From NCBI GenBank assembly GCA_044226625.1, contig JBGAGQ010000105.1, forward strand, positions 1 to 14,486: DNA of 14,486 nucleotides. Direction: 5' to 3'. Each line of letters begins with the position of its first letter. Within the stretch, counting starts at the first letter, position 1. Made by a program: the position numbers and the translations under genes. This DNA comes from Thermoanaerobaculia bacterium (lineage in GTDB: Bacteria > Acidobacteriota > Thermoanaerobaculia > Multivoradales > UBA5704). The notes below the pieces were generated by a model that made no database searches, was not told where the DNA came from, and was given only the letters and a program-made list of their open reading frames with translations. Shown piece after piece: positions 777-13,410 of the stretch.

Positions 777-3001
777 CGTGGCTGGGTTGCCGGGGCGGCG
801 GGTGCTGGAGCGGCGGGTGCCGGCGCGGCGGTCTCCGTGGCGGCGATCCCGGAAGCTTCGCCTCCGGACAGGCAGCGCATCGGCACCGGGCGTTCGAGGG
901 GGTCGCCGGAGAAGCCGACGACGAACAGGCCGACGGTGAGCTCCCTCGTGTCCCGCGAGCCCGGCATGGTCTCGCTCGGGCGCCAGACGGGATCGGCGGT
1001 GAGGACGATCACCACCGACGAGCCGTCGGGGGCGAGGGGCTCGGTGAGTGGGAAGCGGGCGAGCTGTTCGCCCCCCGCGGGATCGAAGCGGAACGTTCCG
1101 AGCGTCCGCCCTGCCGCTTTCGCCGTGAGCGTGAACGTCGGCTCGGGGCGGGAGAGGGTGCTCGGCGGAGGCATCCAGGCGCGGACGATCAGGTCGCCGG
1201 GTGCGGCCTTGAGGCGCAGGCGGGCCGTCGGGCCCATCCAGCGGAACGGCGGCTCCCAGGTGTAGAGGCCGAACAGGGCGACGTCGTCCCGCGGGGAAGC
1301 TCGGAAGTCGGCCACGTGCGCCGCGGCGGTCGGGGCCACGAGGCCGCTCGGGGTCGCACAGACCGGCACGGTCGCGGCGCCGACGGCGTCGGCCCAGCGG
1401 TCGAGCACCTCGTTCTCGCGCCGGAGATCGTCGGCCGAGACGCCCGGAACGATTCGGGTTCCCGGCGGCGCCAGGGCGAAGCGCTCGCCGGCGATCGGCC
1501 GCGGGAAGTGGGTGCGGAAGATCGTCGAGAACGCGAGGCTGCCGTCGTGGATTCCAGGGAAAGGGAACAGGCCGTCGGTGAGCGTCCAGGGCGGTGCGCC
1601 GGGCCGGGCAGCTTCCGCTTCCAGGAGATGTGAGAGCACCGCGGCGGCGCGCCAGAAGGCGGGCGAGGCGTCGTGCGGTGGGGAGGGGAGGGTCTGGCGG
1701 AAGCTCGCGGCCTGGCCGAGCACGAACGGGATCGCGACCAGCAGGACCGCGATTCGGTCCCACGAGAACGCCGCCGCGAGTCGGCTCCGCGGGGACGGCG
1801 TCTCCCCGCCGGGTGCCGGAGAGCCCCGGAAGCGAGAGGCGATCCGCGTGGCGAGCGCGTCGAGCAGCAGGCCGAAGGAGAGGGCGAGCGGCGCGGTGAA
1901 CGGGTAGTAGTAGCGGTTCGAGTTCGGCAGCGCGGCGAAGGTCAGGTCCGGACGGTTCAGGCCGACCGCGAAGGCGAGCGCTGCCGAGCCCGCCCAGAGC
2001 GAAAGGAGCAGGTCGCGTCCGGTGCGTCCGGAGCGCCAGGCGCGCCAGAAGGCGAACGCCGCGAGCAGCCAGCCCACGACGGACGCCGCGGCCCGCCAGG
2101 AGACGGGCGGGATCAGCACCCCTCCCGCCGTGGTGAGGAACTGTCCCGGGGCGCTCGCGAGGATCGCGAAGAACGCCGGGAGGCCGGAGAGCGAGGGGGA
2201 GGGGAACGGGCGGTTCGCGTAGGCGGCGTAGTCGGCGCGCATGAACACGAGAACCGCGAGCCCGGCGAGCGGGAGCGCGAGCGCGGTCCGGCGGGCGAGG
2301 GTCCGCGCGCGGGACTTCTCTCCGAACGAGGCGAGGACGAACGCGAGCCAAGGGGCCGCGAGCCCGGGGAGCGCGCCGGTCGTGGCCGCGAGACCGCCGA
2401 TCGAGAACAGGGCGGTTCGTCCCGGCGACGGCGGGGCGCCGACCCGATAGAACCGCGTGAGCCCGAGGAGCACGGCGACCCAGGCCCCCATCACGACCGC
2501 TCCCGTCGGGTACCAGACGGCGCTGCCGGCGAAACCCGCTCCCGCGGCGTAGAGAAGGGTCGAAGCGAGCACGCCGACGCGGCCCGCGCCTGCGGCGAGC
2601 GCGAGCCGGCCGACGGCCCAGGCTCCCGCGGCGTGGAGGGCGAGCAGCGCCAGGTGGAAGAACCGGGCGTCGGCGCCGAAGAACCAGGTGCTCGCCGAGA
2701 AGAGGAGCCGCCAGGCGGGGATCAGGTGCTCGTTGTGGGGGAGGAAGAGGAGGTCGACGAGGCGATAGGCGCCGAGCCGCCAGAGCGCCACCACGTCGAG
2801 CACGTCCAGGTCGTCGAAGCCGTACGGCGCTCCGATCGCGAGCCATCCCGTGCAGAGGGCGGCCGCGAGGGCCCACAGGTAGAGGCGTCCGGTGGAGGGC
2901 CGATCCGGAGGCGCCTCGGAAGGCGGCGCTCCGTCGTGTCCGGAAGGCGAGCCGGCGGCCTTTCGAGCCGAGGGGTGCGACGCGGGCCGGTCGGCGATCA
3001 T
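773..3001 (-). CDS. Polytopic membrane protein, probable GT-C superfamily glycosyltransferase with C-terminal extracytoplasmic domain
   Basis: It has many hydrophobic segments, an acidic FDD after TM1 followed by LFLPHNEHLIPAWRL, and a later SNRYYY motif. The soluble C-terminal part contains GLYTWEPPFRWMG and ends DTRELTVGL plus an Ala/Pro tail. It lies divergent from a sugar-nucleotide/GT2 operon. Confidence 0.65.
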   Translation of the reverse strand: MIADRPASHPSARKAAGSPSGHDGAPPSEAPPDRPSTGRLYLWALAAALCTGWLAIGAPYGFDDLDVLDVVALWRLGAYRLVDLLFLPHNEHLIPAWRLLFSASTWFFGADARFFHLALLALHAAGAWAVGRLALAAGAGRVGVLASTLLYAAGAGFAGSAVWYPTGAVVMGAWVAVLLGLTRFYRVGAPPSPGRTALFSIGGLAATTGALPGLAAPWLAFVLASFGEKSRARTLARRTALALPLAGLAVLVFMRADYAAYANRPFPSPSLSGLPAFFAILASAPGQFLTTAGGVLIPPVSWRAAASVVGWLLAAFAFWRAWRSGRTGRDLLLSLWAGSAALAFAVGLNRPDLTFAALPNSNRYYYPFTAPLALSFGLLLDALATRIASRFRGSPAPGGETPSPRSRLAAAFSWDRIAVLLVAIPFVLGQAASFRQTLPSPPHDASPAFWRAAAVLSHLLEAEAARPGAPPWTLTDGLFPFPGIHDGSLAFSTIFRTHFPRPIAGERFALAPPGTRIVPGVSADDLRRENEVLDRWADAVGAATVPVCATPSGLVAPTAAAHVADFRASPRDDVALFGLYTWEPPFRWMGPTARLRLKAAPGDLIVRAWMPPPSTLSRPEPTFTLTAKAAGRTLGTFRFDPAGGEQLARFPLTEPLAPDGSSVVIVLTADPVWRPSETMPGSRDTRELTVGLFVVGFSGDPLERPVPMRCLSGGEASGIAATETAAPAPAAPAPAAPATQPR

Positions 3002-3055
3002 CGCCGGCTAGGATATCTTTCGCCGAGCCGTATCGGAGAGAGGAACCCCACACGC
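3002..3055. promoter_or_regulatory. Compact divergent promoter region with RBS for the dehydrogenase
   Basis: A 54-nt gap with an AT-rich core TAGGATATCTTT (3009-3020). This gives TAnnnT boxes on both strands: + TAGGAT and TATCTT; - TATCCT, 8 nt before ATG 3001. A purine-rich GGAGAGAGGA precedes ATG 3056. Confidence 0.4.
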
Positions 3056-4306
3056 ATGCCAGAAGAAATGCCCACCCCCGCCCAGGACGCCCCCGGAAGG
3101 CCCGTCTTCGACCGGGACGTCTGCGTGATCGGGGGCGGCGGACACGTCGGGCTGCCGTTCGCGATGATCTGCGCGGAGAGCGGCTTGAAGACGGTGATCT
3201 ACGACACCGACCGCGAGAAGGTCGCCCGGATCGCCGCGGGCCAGATGCCCTTTTTGGAAGACGGGGCCGACGAGCTGCTGCCGCGCGTGCTCGCGAGCGG
3301 ACGGCTGGAGGTCACCGCCGATCCGGCGCTCGAGCGCTGCCGCTTCCTGGTGATGATCATCGGCACGCCCGTCGACGCCCACCTGAACCCGAGCTTCTCC
3401 GCGCTCCAACGCGCGATCGACGGCTGCCGGGACCAGTTGCGCGACGGCCAGATCCTGATCGTCCGGAGCACCGTCTTTCCCGGTACGAGCGAGCGGCTGG
3501 AGCGCCATCTGCGCGAAGATCTGAAGCTCGACGTGCACGTCGCCTGCTGTCCCGAGCGCGTGGCGCAGGGCAAGAGCCTGGAGGAGTTCCGGACCCTGCC
3601 GCAGCTGGTCTCGGCGTTCGATCCGGCGACGCTCGAAGCGGTGAAAGGGTTGTTTTCCCGCTTCTGCCCCGAGCTGGTCGAGATGAAACCGGCGGAGGCC
3701 GAGCTGTGCAAGCTGATGACCAACGCCTGGCGCTATCTGCAATTCGCGGCGGTCAACCAGTTCTACATGCTCGCCTCGGACCACGACGTCGATTTCGAGC
3801 GCATCCTCCACGGCTGCCGTCATCACTACCCGCGGATGAGCGGGATGCCCGGGCCGGGGCTCACCGCCGGTCCCTGCCTGGTCAAGGACACGCTCCAGCT
3901 CGCCGCCTTCAGCAACAACCAGTTCGTGCTCGGCCACGCCGCGATGCTGATCAACGAGGGGCTGCCGGCCCACCTGGTCAAGCTCGCGCGGCGCGCGACG
4001 CCGCTCGCCGGCAAAACCGTCGGCATCCTCGGCATGGGCTTTAAGGCGGAAAGCGACGACCCGCGCGACTCGCTCTCCTACAAGCTCAAGCACCTGCTCG
4101 CGCTCGAGGCGGGCAAGGTGCTCTGCCACGATCCGTACGTGCCCGACGCGCGCCTCGTGCCTCTCGATCAAGTGATCGAGGAAGCCGAGGTGATCTTCGT
4201 CGGCGCGCCCCACCGCGACTATCGGACGCTCGAGATCCCGCCCGGAAAAGTGGTGGTCGACGTCTGGAGCTGCCTCCCGTCCTCCTCCCACGACGCCAAG
4301 GAGTAA
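3056..4306 (+). CDS. UDP-glucose/GDP-mannose dehydrogenase family nucleotide-sugar dehydrogenase (WecC/WbpA-like)
   Basis: Real portion of the 1673..4306 ORF. Motifs: VCVIGGGGHVGLP (Rossmann), IGTP, RSTVFPGT, CPERV, AELCKLMTN, catalytic Cys in GPCLVKD, and GMGFKAESDDPRDS. Start is 3056 (alternative 3068). Confidence 0.92.
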   Translation: MPEEMPTPAQDAPGRPVFDRDVCVIGGGGHVGLPFAMICAESGLKTVIYDTDREKVARIAAGQMPFLEDGADELLPRVLASGRLEVTADPALERCRFLVMIIGTPVDAHLNPSFSALQRAIDGCRDQLRDGQILIVRSTVFPGTSERLERHLREDLKLDVHVACCPERVAQGKSLEEFRTLPQLVSAFDPATLEAVKGLFSRFCPELVEMKPAEAELCKLMTNAWRYLQFAAVNQFYMLASDHDVDFERILHGCRHHYPRMSGMPGPGLTAGPCLVKDTLQLAAFSNNQFVLGHAAMLINEGLPAHLVKLARRATPLAGKTVGILGMGFKAESDDPRDSLSYKLKHLLALEAGKVLCHDPYVPDARLVPLDQVIEEAEVIFVGAPHRDYRTLEIPPGKVVVDVWSCLPSSSHDAKE

Positions 4307-4310
4307 CCGC

Positions 4311-5333
4311 TTGAAAGTACTGGTCACCGGAGCGGCCGGATTCATCGCCGGCTATCTGATCGAAGAGCTTCTGTCCCGCGGCTTCGAGGTCGTCGGGCTC
4401 GACAACTATTCGAAATACGGCCCGCTCGAAAAGAGCTACAGCGGCCACCCGAACTATCGGTTCGTCGAAGGGGACGCCAAGGACGCGGACCTCGTCGCCG
4501 ATCTGCTCGCGGGCTGCGACCATTTCGTCGCGGGCGCCGCGATGATCGGCGGCATCGCCTACTTCCACACCTTCGCCTACGATCTGATCGCGGAGAACGA
4601 GCGGATCACCGCGGCGAGCTTCGATGCCGCGATCCGCGCGTTCAAGGCGGGGAGCTTGAAGAAGATCACGGTGCTCTCGAGCAGCATGGTGTTCGAGAAC
4701 GCGACGAAGTTTCCGACCCCGGAATCGCATCTTTACGAATGCCCGCCGCCCACCTCGACGTACGGCTTCCAGAAGCTCGCGTGTGAGTATTTCGCCCGCG
4801 GCGCGCGGCTTCAGTACGGGCTGCCCTACACGATCTGCCGGCCGTTCAACTGCGTCGGAACGGGGGAGCGGCGCGCGCTCTCGGACGAGGAGGTCCTCTC
4901 CGGCAACGTCAAGCTCGCGATGAGCCACGTGCTCCCCGACCTGATCCAGAAGGTCTTGAAGGGACAGGATCCCCTCCACATCCTCGGCGCGGGCGACCAG
5001 GTACGGTGCTACACCTACGGCGGCGATCTCGCGAAAGGGATCGCTACGGCGATGCTCCATCCGGCGGCCGACAACGAGGACTTCAACCTCTCGACGCCGG
5101 TCGCGACCACCGTGCTCGAATTGGCCGAGGCGGTCTGGAAGAAGATCCACGGGCCGGACCAGCCGTTCCGCTACGTATCGGACGCGCCGTTCACCTACGA
5201 CGTCCAGATGCGGGTGCCGGACGTGACCAAGGCGAAAGAGGTGCTCGGCTTCGAGGCGTCGACCTCGCTCGACGCTGTGCTCGACGAGGTCGTGCCGTGG
5301 ATCCGCGAGGAGCTCCAGTGGGGTCGGATCTAG
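4311..5333 (+). CDS. NAD-dependent epimerase/dehydratase (extended SDR)
   Basis: Motifs VLVTGAAGFIAG, catalytic SSS and YGFQK (YxxxK), RPFNCVG, GDQVRCYTY. TTG start with GGAG RBS, 4 nt after the upstream stop. Confidence 0.93.
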   Translation: MKVLVTGAAGFIAGYLIEELLSRGFEVVGLDNYSKYGPLEKSYSGHPNYRFVEGDAKDADLVADLLAGCDHFVAGAAMIGGIAYFHTFAYDLIAENERITAASFDAAIRAFKAGSLKKITVLSSSMVFENATKFPTPESHLYECPPPTSTYGFQKLACEYFARGARLQYGLPYTICRPFNCVGTGERRALSDEEVLSGNVKLAMSHVLPDLIQKVLKGQDPLHILGAGDQVRCYTYGGDLAKGIATAMLHPAADNEDFNLSTPVATTVLELAEAVWKKIHGPDQPFRYVSDAPFTYDVQMRVPDVTKAKEVLGFEASTSLDAVLDEVVPWIREELQWGRI

Positions 5334-6061
5334 CGAGCGCGCCGCGCGCCTCGATCGTCGTCCCGGTGTTTAACGAGGGGGCGAACATCGCGGCGTTCTG
5401 CCGGCGGGCGATGGAGGCGTTCTCCGCGGACGTCGAGATCCTGATCGCCTACGACTTCGACGGCGACGATACGCTTCCGGCGCTCGCGGCGCTTCCGGAG
5501 GAAGAAAAACCGCGCGGCCTGCGGCTGGTGAAAAACGACCTCGGGCGCGGCGTCCGCTACGCGATCGAGGCGGGCATGCGCGCCGCGCGCTCGCCGGTCG
5601 TCGTGGTCTCGATGGCCGACCTGTCCGACGACTACGCGAAGCTCGAGGAGATGATCCGCCGCGCGACCGCGGGCGCCGCCGTGGTCGTCGCGAGCCGGTA
5701 TACGAAAGGGGGAGCGCAGCACGGCGGCCCGTGGCTCAAAGGGCAGCTCAGCCGCGCCGCGGGGATCTCCCTCCACTACCTCGCCGGCCTGCCGACGCGC
5801 GACCCGACGAACAGCTTCAAGGCCTACCGCAAGGATTTCCTCGACCGCACCCCGATCGAAAGCCCGGCGGGCTTCTGCCTCGCGCTCGAGCTCACCGCGA
5901 AAGCCCATTTCGCGGGAGAGCGCGTCGAAGAGATTCCGGCGGAGTGGTGGGACCGCACCGCCGGAGAGAGCCGCTTTCAACTCCGCAAATGGCTGCCGCT
6001 CTACCTGCGCTGGTACTTCTGGGCGATCCGGCAGCGGTGGGCGCGCCGTTCGCCTGGCTAG
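5318..6061 (+). CDS. Glycosyltransferase family 2, polyprenol-phosphate glycosyltransferase (DPM1/ArnC-like)
   Basis: Motifs SIVVPVFNEGANI, VVASRYTKGG, DPTNSFKAYR, EIPAEWWDRTAGESRF. GTG at 5318 is preceded by GAGGAG and overlaps the epimerase 3' end. The ORF-track start at 5006 is too far upstream. Confidence 0.9.
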   Translation: MGSDLASAPRASIVVPVFNEGANIAAFCRRAMEAFSADVEILIAYDFDGDDTLPALAALPEEEKPRGLRLVKNDLGRGVRYAIEAGMRAARSPVVVVSMADLSDDYAKLEEMIRRATAGAAVVVASRYTKGGAQHGGPWLKGQLSRAAGISLHYLAGLPTRDPTNSFKAYRKDFLDRTPIESPAGFCLALELTAKAHFAGERVEEIPAEWWDRTAGESRFQLRKWLPLYLRWYFWAIRQRWARRSPG

Positions 6062-6447
6062 GGCCGGCACGGTCGGCCGCAGCCGAGCGGCTCGGGCATC
6101 GCGATACGTTCGGCGCAGATGTCCATCTGGTGACCGATCGAGAGCAGCTCCACCTTGAGGTAGAGATAGGTTCCGAAATAGCAGACGTTGTCCAGTTTTT
6201 GGATCGCCCGGTAGCAGCCCTCGAACAGCTGGAGCGTACGGCGCAGGTTGAAGCACCCCTCGACGTCCAGGCAGGAGAGCTGGTTACGCCGGGCGCACTG
6301 GACCGCCACCTCCTCACTGATCGCGGCGAAGATCTCCGCGGGACATTGGGGTGGGGGCTCGCCGAAATCGCCCGCGTGGGCCGGGGCGAGGAGGCCGGTG
6401 CCCAGGAGGAGGAGGCAGAAGAGGGCGGCGGTTCGAATGCGCGGCAT
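6058..6447 (-). CDS. Small secreted Cys-rich helical protein (129 aa), Ntox16-like domain
   Basis: Last 129 codons of the 6058..8466 ORF. ATG 6447 has the RBS GAAGGAG. The signal peptide MPRIRTAALFCLLLLGTGLLAPAHA ends in AxA. The mature part has 9 Cys (C-x15-C-x7-C-x5-C-x12-C-x10-C-x21-C-x11-C-x3-C). The gene is well supported; the Ntox16 resemblance comes from recalled Cys spacing only. Confidence 0.8.
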   Translation of the reverse strand: MPRIRTAALFCLLLLGTGLLAPAHAGDFGEPPPQCPAEIFAAISEEVAVQCARRNQLSCLDVEGCFNLRRTLQLFEGCYRAIQKLDNVCYFGTYLYLKVELLSIGHQMDICAERIAMPEPLGCGRPCRP

Positions 6448-6497
6448 GGCGTCTCCTTCGAGGTTTCCGAGGCGTCGATCGAAGAATGGCGAGAGGC

Positions 6498-9014
6498 TCA
6501 TCCCGCGAGCCCGGCGGCGCCCAGGGGCGCGAGGAAGCGAAGCATCAGGATCAGTCGAGCGAAGGCTGCCACCGCCTCGACCAACGCTTCGAGGATCTGG
6601 GGGAGGAAGATCGCCGTCGCGATCATGATCGCGAGCAGGGCCGTCGCGAACTGGATGATGTGGACGGGGACCCACGCCGGCGCGAGCTCCTTGATACAGC
6701 GCACGAGCGCGCCGCCGGCCGTGCCGCCCGAGATCAGGTAGCCGGCCGCCCCGGTGAAGGGGTCTTCGATCACGTAGCCCGCGCCTTTCCAGATCCCCAG
6801 GTCGACGTTCCGCTCGGGGACCAAGGCGATGCTCCCCTGGGAGACCGCGTTGGCGACCTCCGCCTCCACGGTGGCGGAGAGCTCCAAGTGCGGCAGGACC
6901 GCGGCGAGGTTCTCCTGCGTGATCCGGTAGAGCGGAATCCCCTGCGCCGCGGCGGCGCCGAGCAGGCTCACCGCCGAGAGGCCGCCGGTGCCGGATTCGC
7001 GGTCGGCGGGAGGATCGAGGCGAGCGTAGATCGCCCCCTCGAGATACGAAGCGATGAAGCCGGTCTGGCGGATCGCCTGGTGGGCTAGGACCGTGGTGGG
7101 TGCCGCGACGTCGACGCTCAGGAGCTGGAGATCCATCGCGTGGCTCTGGTAGGTGCCGGAAAACGGCACGCCATAGAGCGTCGAGACGGAGATCGGCGCC
7201 GAGAACACGCCGACCGACGGCTGCACGACGAGCCGCGCGCCGATCGCCCGCGCCGAGATGCCCGCGACGTCGGCGAGCGCCGCGAAATACTGCAGGCTGG
7301 CCTGGTGCAGGAACTCCGGGGCGTCGGCGACCGGATGCGCCGCGAGCCGTTTTTCGGCGACCGAGCTGCGGATCTCTCCAGCTTGCGCGCCGACTACGAT
7401 CTCGTCGCCCGCGGCCACCGTGAACGGCACCCGTTCGGTTCCGGACGGCGAACGAAGGGAGGCGTCGAGGTAATAAGGCGAGCCCATCGGAACGGCCGCG
7501 CCGGTCGCGAGCACCACGCCGTCGACCTCGATCCGCGGCGTGACGCGGACCAGGTAGATCGGCAGCGAGGACGCTCCGCTCGTCCGCGCCGTGGTGAGAA
7601 TCTGCTCGTCGAGAGCGGACGCCGGTACGAAGCGGACGCCGAGCCGGCGGCTGCCGAGCGACGGGAACGAGATCGAGGCGGAGAGCGCCGCGTGCCCCGT
7701 CGAACGATCGATCGCCGACGCGAAGCCTTGGACCACGATCGAATGGCGAAGGCTCGACGGGAGCGCGGCGTAGCGCGCCTCGGTCCACTCGACCCGGTAG
7801 GGGAGCGACGCGGGAAGGATCGTGCGGTTCTCGGCGATCGGCGATTCGCCGCCCGCGATCCCTTCGACCGTCCCCGGGACCTGCTGGCTCTCCAGGAAGG
7901 CGAACGTGTCCTGAAGCCAGGTTTCGATCCGCGGGCCCAGGAAGTGGTCGTCGAGGCCGCTCACCTTGCCGAGCGGTGCGTCGACCATGAACAGCGGGTC
8001 CGTGGGGGAGACGATGCCGTCGAGCGTCGGCGCCCCCTCGCGCGAAAGCGGCGGGGTGATCCGGTGCTCCTTCCAGGAGGCGTCGAGAGCGAGCCAGGTG
8101 TCCCGCTCGCCGTTCGTCGCGCCGCGCCCGGGCACGTAATCGACGAACGCTTCGACCCAGGCATGCTGGAATTGCAGCCGATCGTCCGCGCCGCCGTCGC
8201 TCCGGACGCTGGCGGCGATACCCCCCGCCCGGGCGAGCTGCTCGGCCTGACCGGTGCTCTCCAGGCCGCCGAAGGCGTTGCGGACGTCGGCGCCGTCGGC
8301 GCTCACCACCCCCGTCACGTAGCGCGCCGGGATGCCGGCCGCGCGCAGCAGGGCGACCAGGAGCGTCGCGGTGTCGAGCGGGTTGCCGCACAGCCGCTCG
8401 AGCGTGGCCGCCGAGTCCTGGGTCGCGCCGTAGGTGGGGAGGAGCTCCACCTCGCTCTTCACCCATTCGTAGATCCGGCGCGGATCGTTGCCGAGCGCCG
8501 CGGCGCGTGCCCGGATCTCGGGCGTGAGCCGCACCTCTTCGGTCTCCGCGAGATCCGCCGCGCTCGGCGGCGCGGCGCGGAGGATGCCGGCCGCGGTCGC
8601 GACGCGCGACGACTCGCCGAGGGGGCGCGGGTCGGCCTTGCGGGCGCGGAACGGCAGGCGCTTCGGATCGAGCGGGCGTTGGACGAGCTCGCGGTCGGAG
8701 TCGACGGCCTCGCCGCGCGCGGCCGCCGCTTCGAAGGACTTCACCGCCCCGAAATGGCGGGCCAAGACGGCGGGCGGGAGCTTTTCCCGCCGCGCCCAGG
8801 CTTCAACCGCCTCGAATGCGGCGGGCGCGCCGGCCGGCCCGAGCGAGCCGTGCGCCTCCCCGGGGGCCATCGCTTCGGCGCGCGTCGTCGGGCGGGGCTT
8901 GAGATCCTCCGTCGCCCGCGCCATCGCCCACCCCTCGCTCCCCGTGCACCAGGCGAGGCAGGCCGCCACCAACGCCGCGGTCGAGCGGCGGAACGATCGA
9001 TCGTTGCATCGCAT
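6498..9014 (-). CDS. Secreted transglutaminase-like (papain-fold) domain protein, catalytic Cys absent, hydrophobic C-terminal tail
   Basis: RBS AAAGGA and an N-terminal signal-like segment. Transglutaminase-core motifs: IYEWVKSEV, GNPLDTATLLVALLRAAGIPARYVTG, HAWVEAFV, WLALDAS. Late motif WKGAGYVIEDPFTGAAGYLISGGTAGG, then about 70 mostly hydrophobic residues. Confidence 0.88.
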   Translation of the reverse strand: MRCNDRSFRRSTAALVAACLAWCTGSEGWAMARATEDLKPRPTTRAEAMAPGEAHGSLGPAGAPAAFEAVEAWARREKLPPAVLARHFGAVKSFEAAAARGEAVDSDRELVQRPLDPKRLPFRARKADPRPLGESSRVATAAGILRAAPPSAADLAETEEVRLTPEIRARAAALGNDPRRIYEWVKSEVELLPTYGATQDSAATLERLCGNPLDTATLLVALLRAAGIPARYVTGVVSADGADVRNAFGGLESTGQAEQLARAGGIAASVRSDGGADDRLQFQHAWVEAFVDYVPGRGATNGERDTWLALDASWKEHRITPPLSREGAPTLDGIVSPTDPLFMVDAPLGKVSGLDDHFLGPRIETWLQDTFAFLESQQVPGTVEGIAGGESPIAENRTILPASLPYRVEWTEARYAALPSSLRHSIVVQGFASAIDRSTGHAALSASISFPSLGSRRLGVRFVPASALDEQILTTARTSGASSLPIYLVRVTPRIEVDGVVLATGAAVPMGSPYYLDASLRSPSGTERVPFTVAAGDEIVVGAQAGEIRSSVAEKRLAAHPVADAPEFLHQASLQYFAALADVAGISARAIGARLVVQPSVGVFSAPISVSTLYGVPFSGTYQSHAMDLQLLSVDVAAPTTVLAHQAIRQTGFIASYLEGAIYARLDPPADRESGTGGLSAVSLLGAAAAQGIPLYRITQENLAAVLPHLELSATVEAEVANAVSQGSIALVPERNVDLGIWKGAGYVIEDPFTGAAGYLISGGTAGGALVRCIKELAPAWVPVHIIQFATALLAIMIATAIFLPQILEALVEAVAAFARLILMLRFLAPLGAAGLAG

Positions 9015-9038
9015 GTCCGGTTCTTCCTTTCTGGGACC

Positions 9039-12000
9039 CTAGTTGCAGCGGGTCGAGTCGTAGAGCGCGCCCTGGTCGCCGCAGGCGCCGTGGCCACCGT
9101 TCGAGTGACGGACGAAGACGAGGACCTCCCCATCGCACGATCCCCCCTTGGGATCGAGCGCGCGGAAGCGGATGTGGTAGACCCGTCCGTCGCCGCCGCC
9201 GCGCCGCTCCGAGCGGACCTCGGCGATGGGGGTGCCGAGGCCGCGGCCGGCCGGGCAGGTCGAGCCGTTCGAATGCGGATCGGTCGGCTCGTCCTGGCGG
9301 ATCGACACGATGCCCACCGTGAGCGGGTCGCCGTCGGGATCGGTGAGGCCCTGGATCGAGATCGGGCGGAAGTTGTGGTTCGGCGGCCAGAGCGAGCTTT
9401 CCGACGGGCGCGCGGCCGAGCAGACCGGGTTGCGGTTGAGAACGGCCTTCACCTCGAGCGTTCCGCTCGCGAGCGTCTGGCGCGCCTCGCTCCCCGGAAC
9501 CCGGACCGAAAGCACCGCGAGGTAGACCTTCGGCGCGAGGCCGGCGGTCGACAGCGGCAGCGCGTCCGAGCGGGTGCCTCCCGGCGGGATCGAGACGGTC
9601 TCGACCGCTTGCGTCGCGACCGCGCCCGAGGCGGGATCGACCAGCGCCACCTCGACCGCGAGCCCGTCGACCGTCGCGTTGCCCTGGTTCAGAAGACCGA
9701 CGCCTGCGGTCGCCGGAGTGCCGACGAACACGGACGACGGGGAGATCGCGAGCGAACCGGTGAGACCGGCGCCGGTCGCCGCCGAGCTCTCGACCTCGAA
9801 CGGCCGGGAGCAGAGCGCGATCGGCGCGGCGCTCGGGTTCCCCCCGGGGATGATCGAGGCCTCGGCGAGGTAGCGGCCGGGCTCGAACGCCGCGAGGCTC
9901 ACGTCCTCCGTCGCGTCGACCGAGCCCAGGGGCGCGATCGGATCGAGCGGAAGGAAGGTGGAGACGAGGGGGACTCCTCCGGCGATCGGCCGGATTTCGA
10001 ACGCCGCCGCGAGCCCCTCGAACGGGGTGCCCGTCGTGAGGTCGTGGGTCCGGACGACGAGCCGGGCGAGATCGGTCGGCGCGTAGCTCGGCCGGTCCGA
10101 GAAGATCGAGCAGGAGACGAGAGTCGCCGGGATCTCGTCCGGGGTCGCCGCGTTGCAGTCGTCGTTCTTGCCGTTGCCCGGGATCTCCGGCGCGGTCAGG
10201 TTCACCTCCGGATCGTGATCGTCGCAGTCGACCCCTTCCGGATCGCCGTCCCCGTCGGCGTCGACCGGCGGCGGCGGCACCGCGAGGCACTGATAGGAGA
10301 CGGGGATCGTGCCGAGCGAGAGGTGCGAGGCGGCGTCGGTGAAGCGGAGCGTGAAGCTGCCGCTTCCCGGCGACCCGGAGCCCGCGAGCGTCACATCGAA
10401 ACGCGCGGAGCCGCCCGGGAGCACTCCGGGCCGGAGCGCCGGAGCGAAGGCCACGGAAACGCCCGACGGCGTCGCTTCCGCCGCGATCGAGACGTCGCGC
10501 GAGTGCGCCTGGCCGCCTGCCCGATCGACGGTTTTGCGGATCGCGTCGGCGATCAGGGTGGCGCCCGCGTCGGCCCCGAACCGGAAGTTCGGCACCAGCG
10601 GAACTCCGTCCGGGCCGAGCGTGCCGGTCGCCTTCGCGATCGCCGAGGTGAAATGGACGGGGCTGTTGGTGCCGACCGTGGGATTCACCTCGGCGGGGTT
10701 GGCCGGGAAGATCAGGCCGATCACCGAGATCCCCCGGCTCACCAGGTCGTCGACCGTCCCCGGTACGGTCGAGGCGCCGCGCGGAGCGACCGCGTCGGCG
10801 ACCGTGTTCGCGTCCAAGGTCAGCGCGTCGGAGACGAACCCGATCCGCCGCCGGGGCCCGAAGGAGACGTCGTCGATGCAGGTGAGCGGCCGGTTCGACA
10901 CGACGACACCACCCGCGCCGACGATGCTCGTCGGGATGGTCGTTCCCGCGGCGTACGGCGCCATCGGGCACCAGTCGGAGAACATCACGACGATCGGCAG
11001 GGCGCCGTCGCGAAAGCCGACGCCGCCGCGCGTGCCGGAGGCGGGGGCGACGTTCGAGCTGAAGGCCGGAATGTCGCCGCTCACCCCGGGAGAGTTGATC
11101 GCGACCAGGCTTCCCGCCGGTCCGCTGTCGAGCGTCGAGCCGTTGCCGTTGCCGTCGAAGCCGGCGCCGGTGGCGATCTGGTGGAGCGCCTCGTGCGCGG
11201 CGAGCGGTCCGCCGCCGGGCGGCTGGGGCCGGTTGATCGCCGCGGAGATGAGATCCGAAAAGCCGGCGATCTCGGGCGTCACGATCGGCTGGACCAGCGT
11301 GAACGCGCGCCGGGTATCGACGTCGGCGAAGCTGTCGAACGCGGGCTGCGGTCCGCCGAAGTTCCCGTAGTGGCCCAGGCCGAATCCCACCGAGAGGCCG
11401 GCCAAGGTGGTTTGCACCCGCGGCACCGTTTGGGTGAGCGCGGCGACCAGGCCCGCGTAGTTGCTGCCGACCGAGAAATTGAAATGGCTGGTGAGGAAGA
11501 AGACGTCGACCTTGTCGATCGCCGACCCGGTCGGGAGGGTGAGCGTCACCGGCACCGTCTGCGGCTGCCCGGCGCAGAACGCGGAGGTCGAATCGAACGA
11601 CAGCGTCGGCGGATCGACCACGCCGGTCGAGGCGCACTCGTTCGTGTTCAATCCGCAGGTGGCGTTGCAGGCGAGCGCGCCGCCGCCGAGCCCGAGGCTT
11701 TCGCAGGTTCGGCCGCCGAAGTCCGGGCCGTCGCACAGCTCCCCCGGCCGGTTGACCACGCCGTCGCCGCAGAACGGCGCGACCGCGCAGGCGGAGGTGT
11801 CGAAGCCGCAGGTCGCGCTGCAGGAGAGGGTTCCCTCGCCCAGGCCGAACGAGCCGCAGGTCCGTCCGCCGAGGTCGGCGCCGTCGCAACGCTCGAACGG
11901 CGGTTCGGCGATCCCGTTGCCGCAGAACGGCACGGCGGACAGGGCGCGCAGGGCGCGCAAGGCGAGCGCGGTCGTGAACGGATCGCCGCCCCAGGAGCCG

Positions 12001-12830
12001 TCGATCCGCTGCGCCGCGAGCAGGTACGCGGTGATCGGCCGCGGGTCGACGGTTCCCGCTCCGCCGTCCACCCGGAGCGCGCCGGCCGCGGCGAGCCCGA
12101 GCGCGGCGGACGCCGTGCGCAGCACGGACGCGGAGCCGGCGTCGGCCGGGCCGAAGCTCCCGTCCGGATTCCGGAGCGACGCGAAGTAGCCGACGGCGTT
12201 CGTGATCCGCGGCTCGACGAAGAACTGGCCGGAGAAACGGCTGAGCGCCGAGAGCGCGATCCCCGTGCAGTAGACCTCGCTGTCGGCCGGCGGGTCGTCG
12301 GTCGAAACGCAGGGCCAGCCGCCGTCGGCGTTCTGCTGGGAGAGGAAGGCGAGGAAGGCCTCGGAGAGCTCGGGCAGCGCGAGCACCGGCCGGTCGGCGA
12401 ACGCCTCGAACGCGAGCGCCGTATCGATCGGGTCGCGGCCGTAGCGCGCGGCGAGCCCCCAGCCGCCTTGGGCAGCGGCGTCGTTCGCGAGCGCCGCGGC
12501 AAGCGCCGAGACGTCGCGTCCCTCCCGGCCGAGCGCCACGATCCGCCGCGCCCGGTCGTCGCTGTCTTCGATCGGTGTGAGGGTCAGGTGATCGCCCGCC
12601 GCCGCACGCGCCCCGGCCGAGCTCGCCAGCTCCTGGAGCGCGCGCAGCGCCTCGGTCGTCGCCTGGGTCGCGCGAACCTCGCCGCTCTCCCAGCGGCCGT
12701 CGGCCTGCTGGGACGCTTCCAGGAAGCCGATTCCGAGGCTTTCCTGCGCCCCGATCGGCGCGGCGAGGAGAGCCCCGCCGAGCAACGCTCCCCAAAACCT
12801 CCGTCGTCCTCTTCGTTCCGCCGTACGCAT
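9039..12830 (-). CDS. Large secreted multidomain protein: prenyltransferase/squalene-cyclase-like QW repeats + 2 Cys-rich repeats + vWA-like domain + MopE-type metal-binding motif + Ig/CARDB-like domains + LWPPNH domain
   Basis: RBS GGGAGG and a signal peptide. QW-like repeats QQADGRW, AAQGGWG, QQNADGGWP, LRNPDGSFG, AQRIDGSWG. Two CG(N/D)G..E.CDG repeats. vWA-like strands VDVFFL, VGFGLGHY, GFRDGALPIVVMFSD. Motif DADGDG..DCDD.DP.VN..APEI.GNG.NDDCN. CARDB-like LLNQGNATVDGLAV. C-terminal LWPPNH...RSERRGGGDGRVYHI. Confidence 0.88.
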   Translation of the reverse strand: MRTAERRGRRRFWGALLGGALLAAPIGAQESLGIGFLEASQQADGRWESGEVRATQATTEALRALQELASSAGARAAAGDHLTLTPIEDSDDRARRIVALGREGRDVSALAAALANDAAAQGGWGLAARYGRDPIDTALAFEAFADRPVLALPELSEAFLAFLSQQNADGGWPCVSTDDPPADSEVYCTGIALSALSRFSGQFFVEPRITNAVGYFASLRNPDGSFGPADAGSASVLRTASAALGLAAAGALRVDGGAGTVDPRPITAYLLAAQRIDGSWGGDPFTTALALRALRALSAVPFCGNGIAEPPFERCDGADLGGRTCGSFGLGEGTLSCSATCGFDTSACAVAPFCGDGVVNRPGELCDGPDFGGRTCESLGLGGGALACNATCGLNTNECASTGVVDPPTLSFDSTSAFCAGQPQTVPVTLTLPTGSAIDKVDVFFLTSHFNFSVGSNYAGLVAALTQTVPRVQTTLAGLSVGFGLGHYGNFGGPQPAFDSFADVDTRRAFTLVQPIVTPEIAGFSDLISAAINRPQPPGGGPLAAHEALHQIATGAGFDGNGNGSTLDSGPAGSLVAINSPGVSGDIPAFSSNVAPASGTRGGVGFRDGALPIVVMFSDWCPMAPYAAGTTIPTSIVGAGGVVVSNRPLTCIDDVSFGPRRRIGFVSDALTLDANTVADAVAPRGASTVPGTVDDLVSRGISVIGLIFPANPAEVNPTVGTNSPVHFTSAIAKATGTLGPDGVPLVPNFRFGADAGATLIADAIRKTVDRAGGQAHSRDVSIAAEATPSGVSVAFAPALRPGVLPGGSARFDVTLAGSGSPGSGSFTLRFTDAASHLSLGTIPVSYQCLAVPPPPVDADGDGDPEGVDCDDHDPEVNLTAPEIPGNGKNDDCNAATPDEIPATLVSCSIFSDRPSYAPTDLARLVVRTHDLTTGTPFEGLAAAFEIRPIAGGVPLVSTFLPLDPIAPLGSVDATEDVSLAAFEPGRYLAEASIIPGGNPSAAPIALCSRPFEVESSAATGAGLTGSLAISPSSVFVGTPATAGVGLLNQGNATVDGLAVEVALVDPASGAVATQAVETVSIPPGGTRSDALPLSTAGLAPKVYLAVLSVRVPGSEARQTLASGTLEVKAVLNRNPVCSAARPSESSLWPPNHNFRPISIQGLTDPDGDPLTVGIVSIRQDEPTDPHSNGSTCPAGRGLGTPIAEVRSERRGGGDGRVYHIRFRALDPKGGSCDGEVLVFVRHSNGGHGACGDQGALYDSTRCN
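11634..11924 (-). repeat. Two tandem intragenic Cys-rich repeats (46-aa unit, 153-nt period), myxobacterial Cys-rich-repeat-like
   Basis: CGNGIAEPPFERCDGADLGGRTCGSFGLGEGTLSCSATCGFDTSAC (11924-11787) and CGDGVVNRPGELCDGPDFGGRTCESLGLGGGALACNATCGLNTNEC (11771-11634), with six aligned Cys each. Confidence 0.9.
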
Positions 12831-12870: not shown

Positions 12871-12918
12871 AAGGCGCAAGGGCGAAAAAAAGAGGGCCAT
12901 CGGGTTGGCCGCGAGACC

Positions 12919-12933: not shown

Positions 12934-13410
12934 ATGAGCGACGCGATCGAACGAAAGCTACGCGAAGACGTCGAGGAGCATGGCTGGCACGTGCTCAACG
13001 TCCTGTCGGAAGGCGGCACGAGTCCGGGCTGGAGTTACTCGGTCGGCCTGTTCCATACCTTCGGTCATCCCGAGATCGTGGTCGTCGGGCTGCCGCCCGA
13101 CACGGGGCACGCGATCCTCAACGACGTGGGCGCCGCGATCCGCGCGGGGCGCCGGTTGGAGGACGGGACGGTCGACGCCGGTTTTCTCGAGGGATACGAC
13201 AGCCTCTTCCGGCAGGTGCCCACCTCTCGATACGAGAGCCACTTCGGGCGCGCAATCGATTTCTACGGCGGGACGGACTTTCCCGTGCTCCAACTGGTCT
13301 ATCCGGACCGGGAGGGGCACTGGCCGTGGGAAGAAGGGGTGGCGGCCGGCTTTCGGGAGGCGCAACCGGTCCTCGCGCTCGAGCCCGGCGCGGGAGCGGC
13401 GGCGACCTAG
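12934..13410 (+). CDS. DUF4262 domain-containing protein
   Basis: Family pattern: VEEHGWHVLNV ... WSYSVGLFHTFGHPEIVVVGLP ... LQLVYPDREGHWPWE. Confidence 0.88.
   Translation: MSDAIERKLREDVEEHGWHVLNVLSEGGTSPGWSYSVGLFHTFGHPEIVVVGLPPDTGHAILNDVGAAIRAGRRLEDGTVDAGFLEGYDSLFRQVPTSRYESHFGRAIDFYGGTDFPVLQLVYPDREGHWPWEEGVAAGFREAQPVLALEPGAGAAAT

Follow-up and report, generated by a model that had tools for sequence, protein, structure and literature searches.

We analyzed a 14,486-bp stretch of DNA from a Thermoanaerobaculia bacterium, which is the entire contig C116 of its assembly (6.6 Mb in 133 contigs; ~72% G+C) and is referred to here as the window. The window carries three neighboring genes, A, B and C, encoding a giant modular partner protein, a transglutaminase-fold protein without the catalytic cysteine and a small stand-alone protein of the Ntox16 toxin family, respectively. 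The locus is probably a split, disarmed version of a kind of toxin that has already been described computationally, and the pairing of A with B is the more general new point: judged from sequence comparison, A is the near-constant giant partner of B, and the A–B pair is a general unit found across many phyla. The original prediction, made from the letters of the window alone, had taken all three genes as the unit; this was too general, since A–B is the unit and C is present in only five loci.

The B protein matches the Pfam family Transglut_core over residues 165–312 (E 6e-16), just after a signal-peptide-like N-terminus, while NCBIfam holds no family for B or C. A search of a large protein collection identified 101 homologues of B at E≤1e-3 among 8000 scored candidates, of which 90 were aligned after exclusion of the short or partial sequences P0030, P0047, P0050, P0059, P0078, P0082, P0089, P0092, P0095, P0096, and P0101. 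At the position of the catalytic Cys, none of the 90 sequences has a Cys; Ala is found in 75, Asp in seven, Ser in five, and Pro in three; the window's B has Pro. The surrounding pocket is retained, with N211, D214, W286, and D311 in 90/90 sequences and H284 in 88/90. The family is thus uniformly Cys-less yet keeps a strongly conserved Asn/Asp/His/Trp/Asp pocket. The AlphaFold model of B, built on the 90-homologue alignment (predicted local distance difference test (pLDDT) 86, predicted template modeling score (pTM) 0.87), shares its core fold with the solved structure 3isr of Cytophaga hutchinsonii (Z 13.8, 152 residues aligned, root-mean-square deviation 3.5), and further transglutaminase-like matches of the core include TglA, LapG, TG3, and TgpA of Pseudomonas aeruginosa (6g49/6g4h; Z 6.7). 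Alignment with 3isr, a putative protease, puts P212 of B opposite a Cys that we take to be the catalytic one. B also differs from 3isr by an added region of ~450 residues (320–776), for which neither Foldseek nor a wider fold search found a structure match when it was searched within the whole 838-residue model. In the ESM Atlas, all matches were to 'hypothetical protein' clusters and scored below 0.9. The predicted transglutaminase without its Cys is therefore borne out by the family match, the fold match and the 0/90 count. A lipoprotein N-terminus for B (VAAC lipobox) was also considered and dropped, because the consensus of the family does not retain the Cys of this box.

The conserved module of B closes with a boundary motif, GAAGYLISGG-TAGG, for which GAGAYLISGG is the conserved form given for the family and in which G755, G763, G764, and G767 are invariant or nearly so among the aligned homologues. 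Past this motif the sequences diverge: the tails are ≤100 amino acids (aa) long in 40/90 homologues, and at least one hydrophobic 19-mer follows right after the motif in 85/90. We scanned 33 of the 90 homologues with Pfam, comprising 31 with longer tails (~140 aa or more) together with P0003 and P0009, and found toxin-type tips in three, namely Ntox16 (P0061, E 1.3e-12), DNase_NucA_NucB (P0081), and DUF6310 (P0085); the other 30 showed only the transglutaminase core above noise. Seven of the 90 homologues (P0033, P0034, P0035, P0038, P0041, P0046, and P0049) carry a Cys/Pro-rich C-terminal tip of ~75–90 aa (CNCPP...HWHY...GGC), which sits behind two or three hydrophobic segments and an AYA-like site and has no Pfam family match. 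The tail of the window's B is 74 aa long and consists, in the model, of a hydrophobic helix (787–808) and an Arg-bearing amphipathic helix (814–831). It is hydrophobic, has no toxin domain, is conserved among the six closest proteins and is nearly unchanged in the five that are 65% identical, and the modeled helices make it a probable membrane anchor. A sorting signal of the GlyGly-CTERM type (ISGG plus a transmembrane (TM) segment) was rejected, as RHS-bearing members run >1000 residues past the motif.

Relatives of B were collected by scanning one genome per species; the best 80 of 158 confirmed stretches were kept, giving 78 loci that span Acidobacteriota, Archangium, Methylococcaceae, Cellvibrio, Alcanivorax, Moraxella, Acidovorax, Nitrospirota, Bacillota, and others. 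Where a source names the closest relatives of B, they are classed as Acidobacteriota or Thermoanaerobaculia. Among 11 long open reading frames (ORFs) that group with B, eight contain RHS repeats, seven have these together with Transglut_core, and six of the seven also have DUF6531; the window's B gives no RHS match in Pfam. In three loci (L022, L016, and L044), truncated copies lie 3' of the full-length B gene, align to the last ~100–200 residues of the module, span a GAGAY.ISGG motif and then enter differing hydrophobic tails. In a fourth locus, L047, the end of the frame of the main gene is overlapped by a B-like fragment, which has the motif but gave no alignment to the main gene. Behind each full-length gene or cassette in these loci comes a small ORF, and two TM segments are predicted in most of these ORFs. 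The arrangement in L022, L016, and L044 is the one known from classical loci with orphan cassettes and immunity genes. Moraxella, Acidovorax, and other proteobacterial relatives thereby resemble Rhs/CdiA loci, having a full-length gene, a gene for a small membrane protein and truncated cassettes that share the module end while their tails differ. Unlike Rhs/CdiA loci, no marker of a type V, type VI or type VII secretion system (T5SS, T6SS, T7SS) is found beside the genes, B is paired with a giant modular protein exported by Sec, and the window's locus has no cassettes. The Moraxella macacae locus (L022, 7050–17431) contains a full-length B-like gene and at least four truncated cassettes with differing hydrophobic tails, several of which precede a small two-TM ORF, and additionally a transglutaminase-core fragment.

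These hypervariable tails past the boundary, the Ntox16, NucA/NucB and DUF6310 tips and the orphan cassettes in Proteobacteria uphold the resemblance to polymorphic toxins on which the original prediction was built. Its proposal that the system uses general secretion rather than T5SS, T6SS, T7SS or Rhs stands in part: only Sec signals are seen, but the contrast with Rhs was wrong, given that 7/11 long members combine Transglut_core with RHS repeats. The view that no comparable system was known has to be given up. B belongs to a family described computationally by Zhang et al. 2012 (PMC3482391), the available part of which reports an 'inactive transglutaminase' that lacks triad residues, lies right behind the signal peptide of polymorphic toxins, 'always' precedes RHS repeats, is listed in Table 1 under the Sec/type II secretion system (T2SS) route and was proposed to anchor the toxin via peptide binding, not catalysis. 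As in that description, B has a signal peptide followed by a transglutaminase fold without a triad residue, and members of the B family have RHS repeats and diverse C-terminal toxin domains. The differences are that RHS always follows there, whereas the window's B and most homologues of near length have the hydrophobic tail directly, and that the window's B has neither a fused toxin nor an immunity gene. In the available part of Zhang et al. 2012 (PMC3482391), we found no mention of short hydrophobic-tail forms, the boundary motif, a giant partner or stand-alone Ntox16 genes. An A-like giant partner of these toxins was likewise not mentioned in the other literature that we found, and the supplements of Zhang et al. 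2012 may list A–B neighborhoods. Our literature search found no bench work on the inactive-transglutaminase toxin family. The gene called 'inactive transglutaminase' in J Bacteriol 2025 (PMC12096838) belongs, as far as the available part of that article shows, to a family fused to seven TM segments that is different from B.

The pairing of A with B was evident from the gene neighborhoods. All-against-all BLAST of crude ORFs from the 78 loci gave a B-like cluster in 78/78 and an A-like cluster in 61/78, with no further cluster in more than three. An A-like gene adjoins the B-like gene in 64/78 loci, tblastn having added L001, L021, and L060, where the ORF calls were spoilt by high G+C; among the 14 loci without an A-like gene, several are contigs of <5 kb or begin at B. 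With few exceptions, the A-like gene shares the strand of B and is its immediate neighbor, mostly on the upstream side; in L007, L013, L018, L027, and L075 it comes downstream of B, one small ORF away, and in L010 it comes directly downstream. A sample of 201 genomes evenly drawn from the class was searched with the B profile and with the toroid part of A (270 aa, E≤1e-8). B was found in 19 genomes, representing 13/80 genera, and the A toroid in 14, of which 13 also have B, so that the association holds in both directions. For ten A–B pairs, or eleven if the window is counted, both genes are on a single contig, at a spacing compatible with direct adjacency given A-like frames of up to ~7000 aa. 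Carriers of A–B include Acidobacteriota, Myxococcota, Gamma- and Betaproteobacteria, Nitrospirota, Bacillota, and others. The recurrence of a large upstream gene beside B homologues, which had been suggested as support for a joint system, was thus found in the loci and in the class sample alike. A locus search from an A alignment was seeded on a promiscuous MopE-like motif, had among its 74 loci no full-length A beyond the three known before and was useless as a reciprocal test. Metagenome contigs yielded no locus with the single B sequence and six loci with an alignment of six close proteins. In G089, G093, G166, and G181, the A-like partners lie in open frames of ~5900–7200 aa, far beyond the size of the window's A.

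A itself is modular. Its N-terminal part resembles an α/α-toroid, with a SQHop_cyclase_C match at 26.5 bits (cut-off 26.1) and QW-type motifs at residues 36, 159, and 269 in a pattern search, in agreement with the predicted QW-repeat scaffold. The C-terminal part recurs as well, with tblastn matches to residues ~900–1130 in many loci, and the equivalent regions of partner proteins match MG2 or CARDB. Between the two lies a middle module that is itself exchanged, as seen in six aligned orthologues: one type is common to the window, L084, and L010, and another to L001, L096, and L003 (IgGFc_binding in L003). Pfam assigned SQHop_cyclase or Prenyltrans to seven of 11 A-like partners (one also with TED_complement), MG2 to six, and CARDB to four, and their middles are diverse, including CarboxypepD_reg arrays, NHL propellers, FG-GAP, IgGFc_binding, VWA, and He_PIG or cadherin-like domains. 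The original prediction had assigned to A a von Willebrand factor A (vWA) domain without its metal ion-dependent adhesion site (MIDAS). The MIDAS pattern D-x-[ST]-x-S occurs nowhere in A (TSHFNFS in the window, FDDTGSF in L010). The vWA identity is not directly confirmed: the window's A has no vWA family match even at E≤5, and a PDB profile search with the middle module gave no match. Support is indirect and comes from the orthologous module of L010 (45% identical over the whole protein), which matches vWA_SIBA-E at 22.8 bits, below the cut-off of 27. In L097 (G041:C83, ~12991–12998), the match to the A orthologue breaks at residue 684 into two parts in different frames, which reflects either a frameshift or an assembly error.

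C is the most diverged of the three proteins. At E≤0.01 it has no Pfam match, and at E≤10 only Ntox16 is found (14.2 bits, E 0.055), below the gathering cut-off of 25. A word-based protein search with C returned only C itself; an exhaustive HMMER search returned 15 proteins at E≤1e-3, and C was aligned with 14 others after P0109 (817 aa, matched only over residues 16–39) had been left out. Eight Cys are invariant in this alignment (n=15), and 14/15 of its members match Ntox16 at E≤0.1 (best 8.2e-12). The C profile also aligns by hhalign with the Ntox16 tip of P0061 (residues 978–1060; E 9.4e-5, probability 59%), and the Cys pattern and helices of C coincide with those of this tip. The model of C is a three-helix bundle (37–50, 65–90, and 95–116) with pLDDT of 86.6 overall and >93 over the mature part, and its matches in the PDB are confined to generic helical bundles, none of which reaches E≤0.001. 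This agrees with the α-helical character given for Ntox16 (PF15523) in the table of Zhang et al. 2012 (PMC3482391), where the family signature is 'R, [DNE]xxH'. C differs from Ntox16 in being free-standing with its own signal peptide, in scoring below the cut-off and in lacking [DNE]xxH, with Y94 and L97 standing where distant members have D/N and H. The distant stand-alone homologues carry CW.GGD..H or GGN..H; the motif is kept in P0106–P0117, L001, and L096 and is lost in the window's C, P0103, P0104, and P0105. The predicted Ntox16-like domain without its His motif is accordingly retained, and C can be regarded as a diverged stand-alone Ntox16-family protein. Our literature search found no bench test of any Ntox16 protein.

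The distribution of C is narrow. C occurs in A-B-C order in the window, the metagenome contig L084 and a same-genus genome (G041, L097), and in A-C-B order with the motif intact in L001 and a same-order genome (G193, L096). A hidden Markov model (HMM) of C, run over six-frame ORFs of loci L001–L113, found a C-like gene in only one of the 78 species-level B loci (L001). In the class sample, C-like sequence is present in 7/201 genomes: three copies lie inside A–B modules, and three form the end of a long frame in genomes where B gave no match, among them a 2981-aa DUF6531-RHS-Ntox16 protein in G075. Because C-like genes are found in only 1/78 B loci and few class genomes, C is best described as a lineage-specific third member, with A–B as the general unit. 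Identities to the window are 73% for A, 65% for B, and 54% for C in L084, and 67–73%, 65%, and 60%, respectively, in L097. By these values, C changes fastest of the three genes but has not been replaced. The idea of a small variable cargo or a swapped C-terminus hence fails within the window's clade, where the B tail and C are conserved in place and not exchanged. A complex prediction for B 60–776 with C 26–129 (score 0.03, mark 0.32) has no bearing either way. In L001, an ankyrin-repeat gene (10218–10709 (+); Ank, E 4e-19) lies directly downstream of B and is absent from L096; it is a possible immunity candidate for the motif-intact stand-alone Ntox16-like gene.

The features of the three genes are collected in Table 1. 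The intergenic gaps are 24 nucleotides (nt) between A and B and 50 nt between B and C; purine-rich motifs resembling ribosome-binding sites (RBS) lie 6–8 nt ahead of all three ATGs, and each translated N-terminus, judged by eye, has a basic part, a hydrophobic stretch and an AxA-like site. The gene order and gaps, the separate RBS and the export signals are all as originally claimed. Longer ORFs that overlap A, B, and C are the usual high-GC artefacts. A simple pattern scan revealed no sigma-70-like promoter in the window and three terminator-like sites, a count not above that of shuffled sequences, none of them in the A–B or B–C gap. Together, the three genes form a probable operon of Sec-exported proteins.

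Table 1 Features of the A, B, and C genes in the window (residue numbers refer to the encoded protein)
Feature	Position	Strand	Description
Gene A	9039..12830	(-)	1263 aa, exported giant modular partner protein; RBS GGGAGGA 7 nt 5' of ATG
A residues 30-300	11931..12743	(-)	α/α-toroid-like, QW-type repeats; most conserved part of A
A residues ~301-400	11631..11930	(-)	Cys-rich DUF4215-like repeats; weak DUF4215 match (E 0.0055), C..CGDG..N..E.CDG repeated
A residues 415-850	10281..11588	(-)	Exchangeable middle module; perhaps integrin-beta-like vWA without MIDAS (unproven)
A residues ~857-1263	9042..10262	(-)	MopE-like motif (weak MopE match) and conserved beta-rich C-terminal region with LWPPNH motif
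Gene B	6498..9014	(-)	838 aa, exported, predicted membrane-anchored Cys-less transglutaminase-module protein; RBS GGAAGA
B residues 165-312	8079..8522	(-)	Transglutaminase-fold core; P212 replaces catalytic Cys, H284 and D311 kept
B residues 755-768	6711..6752	(-)	Boundary motif closing the conserved module, GAAGYLISGGTAGG
B residues 783-838	6501..6668	(-)	Hydrophobic helix and amphipathic Arg-bearing helix; probable membrane anchor
Gene C	6058..6447	(-)	129 aa, exported stand-alone Ntox16-family protein; RBS GAAGGAG
C residues 94-97	6157..6168	(-)	YLYL at the [DNE]xxH position; Y94 and L97 replace D/N and H

The module is bounded by opposite-strand genes, a glycosyltransferase family 2 (GT2) gene (5330..6061 (+)) convergent with C and a DUF4262 gene (12934..13410 (+), E 3.5e-46) divergent from A. 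C is followed by the GT2 gene with no further ORF in between, and no immunity-gene candidate is seen within the module; B and C are each single-copy in the genome, and no orphan cassettes are present. The contig L084 has the order A-B-C followed by the same GT2 and epimerase genes as the window, so the A-B-C block has been inherited in place. The GT2 gene ends a run of sugar-nucleotide genes (1673–6061 (+)), which includes UDP-glucose/GDP-mannose dehydrogenase domains and an NAD-dependent epimerase (4311..5333). Gene calls are ambiguous between 773 and 4345, where minus-strand ORFs of 742 and 445 aa without a family match are overlapped by a plus-strand frame (1673..4306) with three UDPG_MGDP_dh domains within its last 400 residues. 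In the divergent gap to the DUF4262 gene, ~60 nt 5' of the A start, a terminator-like hairpin with a T-run (12895–12910 (-)) could stop minus-strand transcripts arriving from further upstream.

Our reading, held with moderate confidence, is that a contact-type toxin system has here been domesticated into a non-toxic form, which may now serve adhesion or recognition instead of killing and in which B would anchor, A would bind and C would be non-catalytic. The module would derive from the widespread two-gene A–B unit, with B built on the ~650-residue N-terminal module that bears polymorphic toxin tips elsewhere. After export, B would stay fixed in the membrane through its C-terminal helix, and its transglutaminase-like pocket may bind a peptide or an envelope ligand instead of cutting it. 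A, with its conserved toroid-like N-terminus, exchangeable binding-type middles and conserved immunoglobulin- or MG-like C-terminal domains, would dock on B, the exchangeable modules setting the binding specificity. In armed relatives, the weapon would be the tip past the boundary motif, which may be RHS-caged, tethered by a hydrophobic hairpin or hydrophobic in its own right. In fused forms, the Cys-rich tip is preceded by a second hydrophobic segment, ending in an AxA-like site, which would return the tip outside the cytoplasm. In the window's lineage, B ends in a conserved, probable hydrophobic anchor in place of a toxin, and the Ntox16-type domain is the separate gene C, whose product may be a disulfide-stabilized, non-catalytic passenger or ligand of the A–B complex. 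Since a fused B-Ntox16 protein (P0061) exists, 'split', the term of the original prediction, is a fair description, and the split would preserve topology, as the signal peptide of C takes it to the same side as the fused tip. The term 'disarmed' also fits the lost [DNE]xxH, the missing immunity gene and the conserved synteny.

Several points weigh against this reading. The loss of [DNE]xxH need not mean loss of activity, because the role of the Ntox16 motif is only predicted, and the invariant pocket of B could yet catalyze a reaction in some other way. All of the ~30 cluster representatives nearest to B have hydrophobic tails and lack a toxin domain, so that B in the window's clade may be 'never armed' rather than 'disarmed'. 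The host is a diderm; the three proteins show Sec signals only, and the contig encodes no outer-membrane route. B is also patchy (19/201 genomes) and was not found in one same-genus genome that is 98% complete, nor in two other same-family genomes searched; such a distribution is as compatible with an accessory conflict system as with a housekeeping one.

The patchiness of B would equally suit an active antagonistic system, in which C or the hydrophobic tail of B is a working toxin and self-protection is encoded elsewhere or unneeded. The hallmarks of toxin loci are clear in the B family elsewhere, a classical RHS toxin from the same class (G075) ends in an Ntox16 tip, C changes fastest of the three genes, and the hydrophobic tails of the proteobacterial members vary in a toxin-like manner and are followed by small membrane proteins. 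We consider this explanation unlikely, as C lacks the [DNE]xxH that the distant stand-alone homologues and P0061 keep, the module contains no candidate immunity ORF, the B tail and C stay in place in L084 and L097 instead of being swapped, and neither orphan cassettes nor second copies of B and C are present. Alternatively, A–B might be a protective or structural complex of the envelope, with A comparable to bacterial alpha-2-macroglobulin, B as its membrane tether and toxin tips as secondary additions. Bacterial alpha-2-macroglobulins combine a toroid, the thioester-containing domain (TED), with macroglobulin (MG) domains, and the A-like partners likewise combine toroid-type repeats with MG2-, bMG3-, and CARDB-like beta domains, matching the TED_complement, MG2, bMG3, and CARDB families; moreover, the closest ~30 relatives of B have anchors only, and the Sec signals of A, B, and C make the periplasm their default location in a diderm. 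However, A has no CxEQ thioester motif anywhere, its toroid is N-terminal and not embedded among MG domains, and the MG2 and TED matches are mostly under the Pfam cut-offs. The A-like middles (NHL, FG-GAP, IgGFc-binding, vWA, cadherin-like) are also exchanged between close relatives in the manner of binding specificities, in proteins of up to ~7000 aa, and RHS-bearing forms of B are paired with A as well (L036, L057, and L064), which leaves this explanation rather unlikely. That A, B, and C are merely neighboring genes for secreted proteins without a joint function is very improbable in view of the A–B adjacency in 64/78 loci from many phyla and the two-way association in the class sample, the presence of C inside the module in two orders and the gaps of only 24 and 50 nt without a terminator-like site.

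A broader proposal, which we put forward tentatively, is that A–B constitutes an unrecognized Sec-dependent two-component platform for the display or delivery of polymorphic toxins, and that the window has kept the platform while its weapon was inactivated, yielding a recognition or adhesion device. A would then be a target-binding or translocating partner that docks on the Cys-less transglutaminase module of B, and the tips belonging to B would be caged by RHS, tethered by a hairpin or encoded separately.

We know of no route by which polymorphic toxins with only a Sec signal reach their targets, and the near-constant giant partner A is a concrete candidate for the missing delivery component of the inactive-transglutaminase toxins. 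Culturable carriers of A–B exist in Archangium, Methylobacter, Cellvibrio, and Acidovorax. The Ntox16 family gains small, secreted, disulfide-rich members that are expected to be easy to express, and its forms compose a natural series, from a domain fused to B (P0061) to a split gene with the motif intact (L001 and L096) and a split gene with the motif lost (the window's clade), which is useful for understanding how conflict systems become domesticated. If the platform proposal is true, a toxin system would have been turned into a recognition or adhesion device in the window's lineage.

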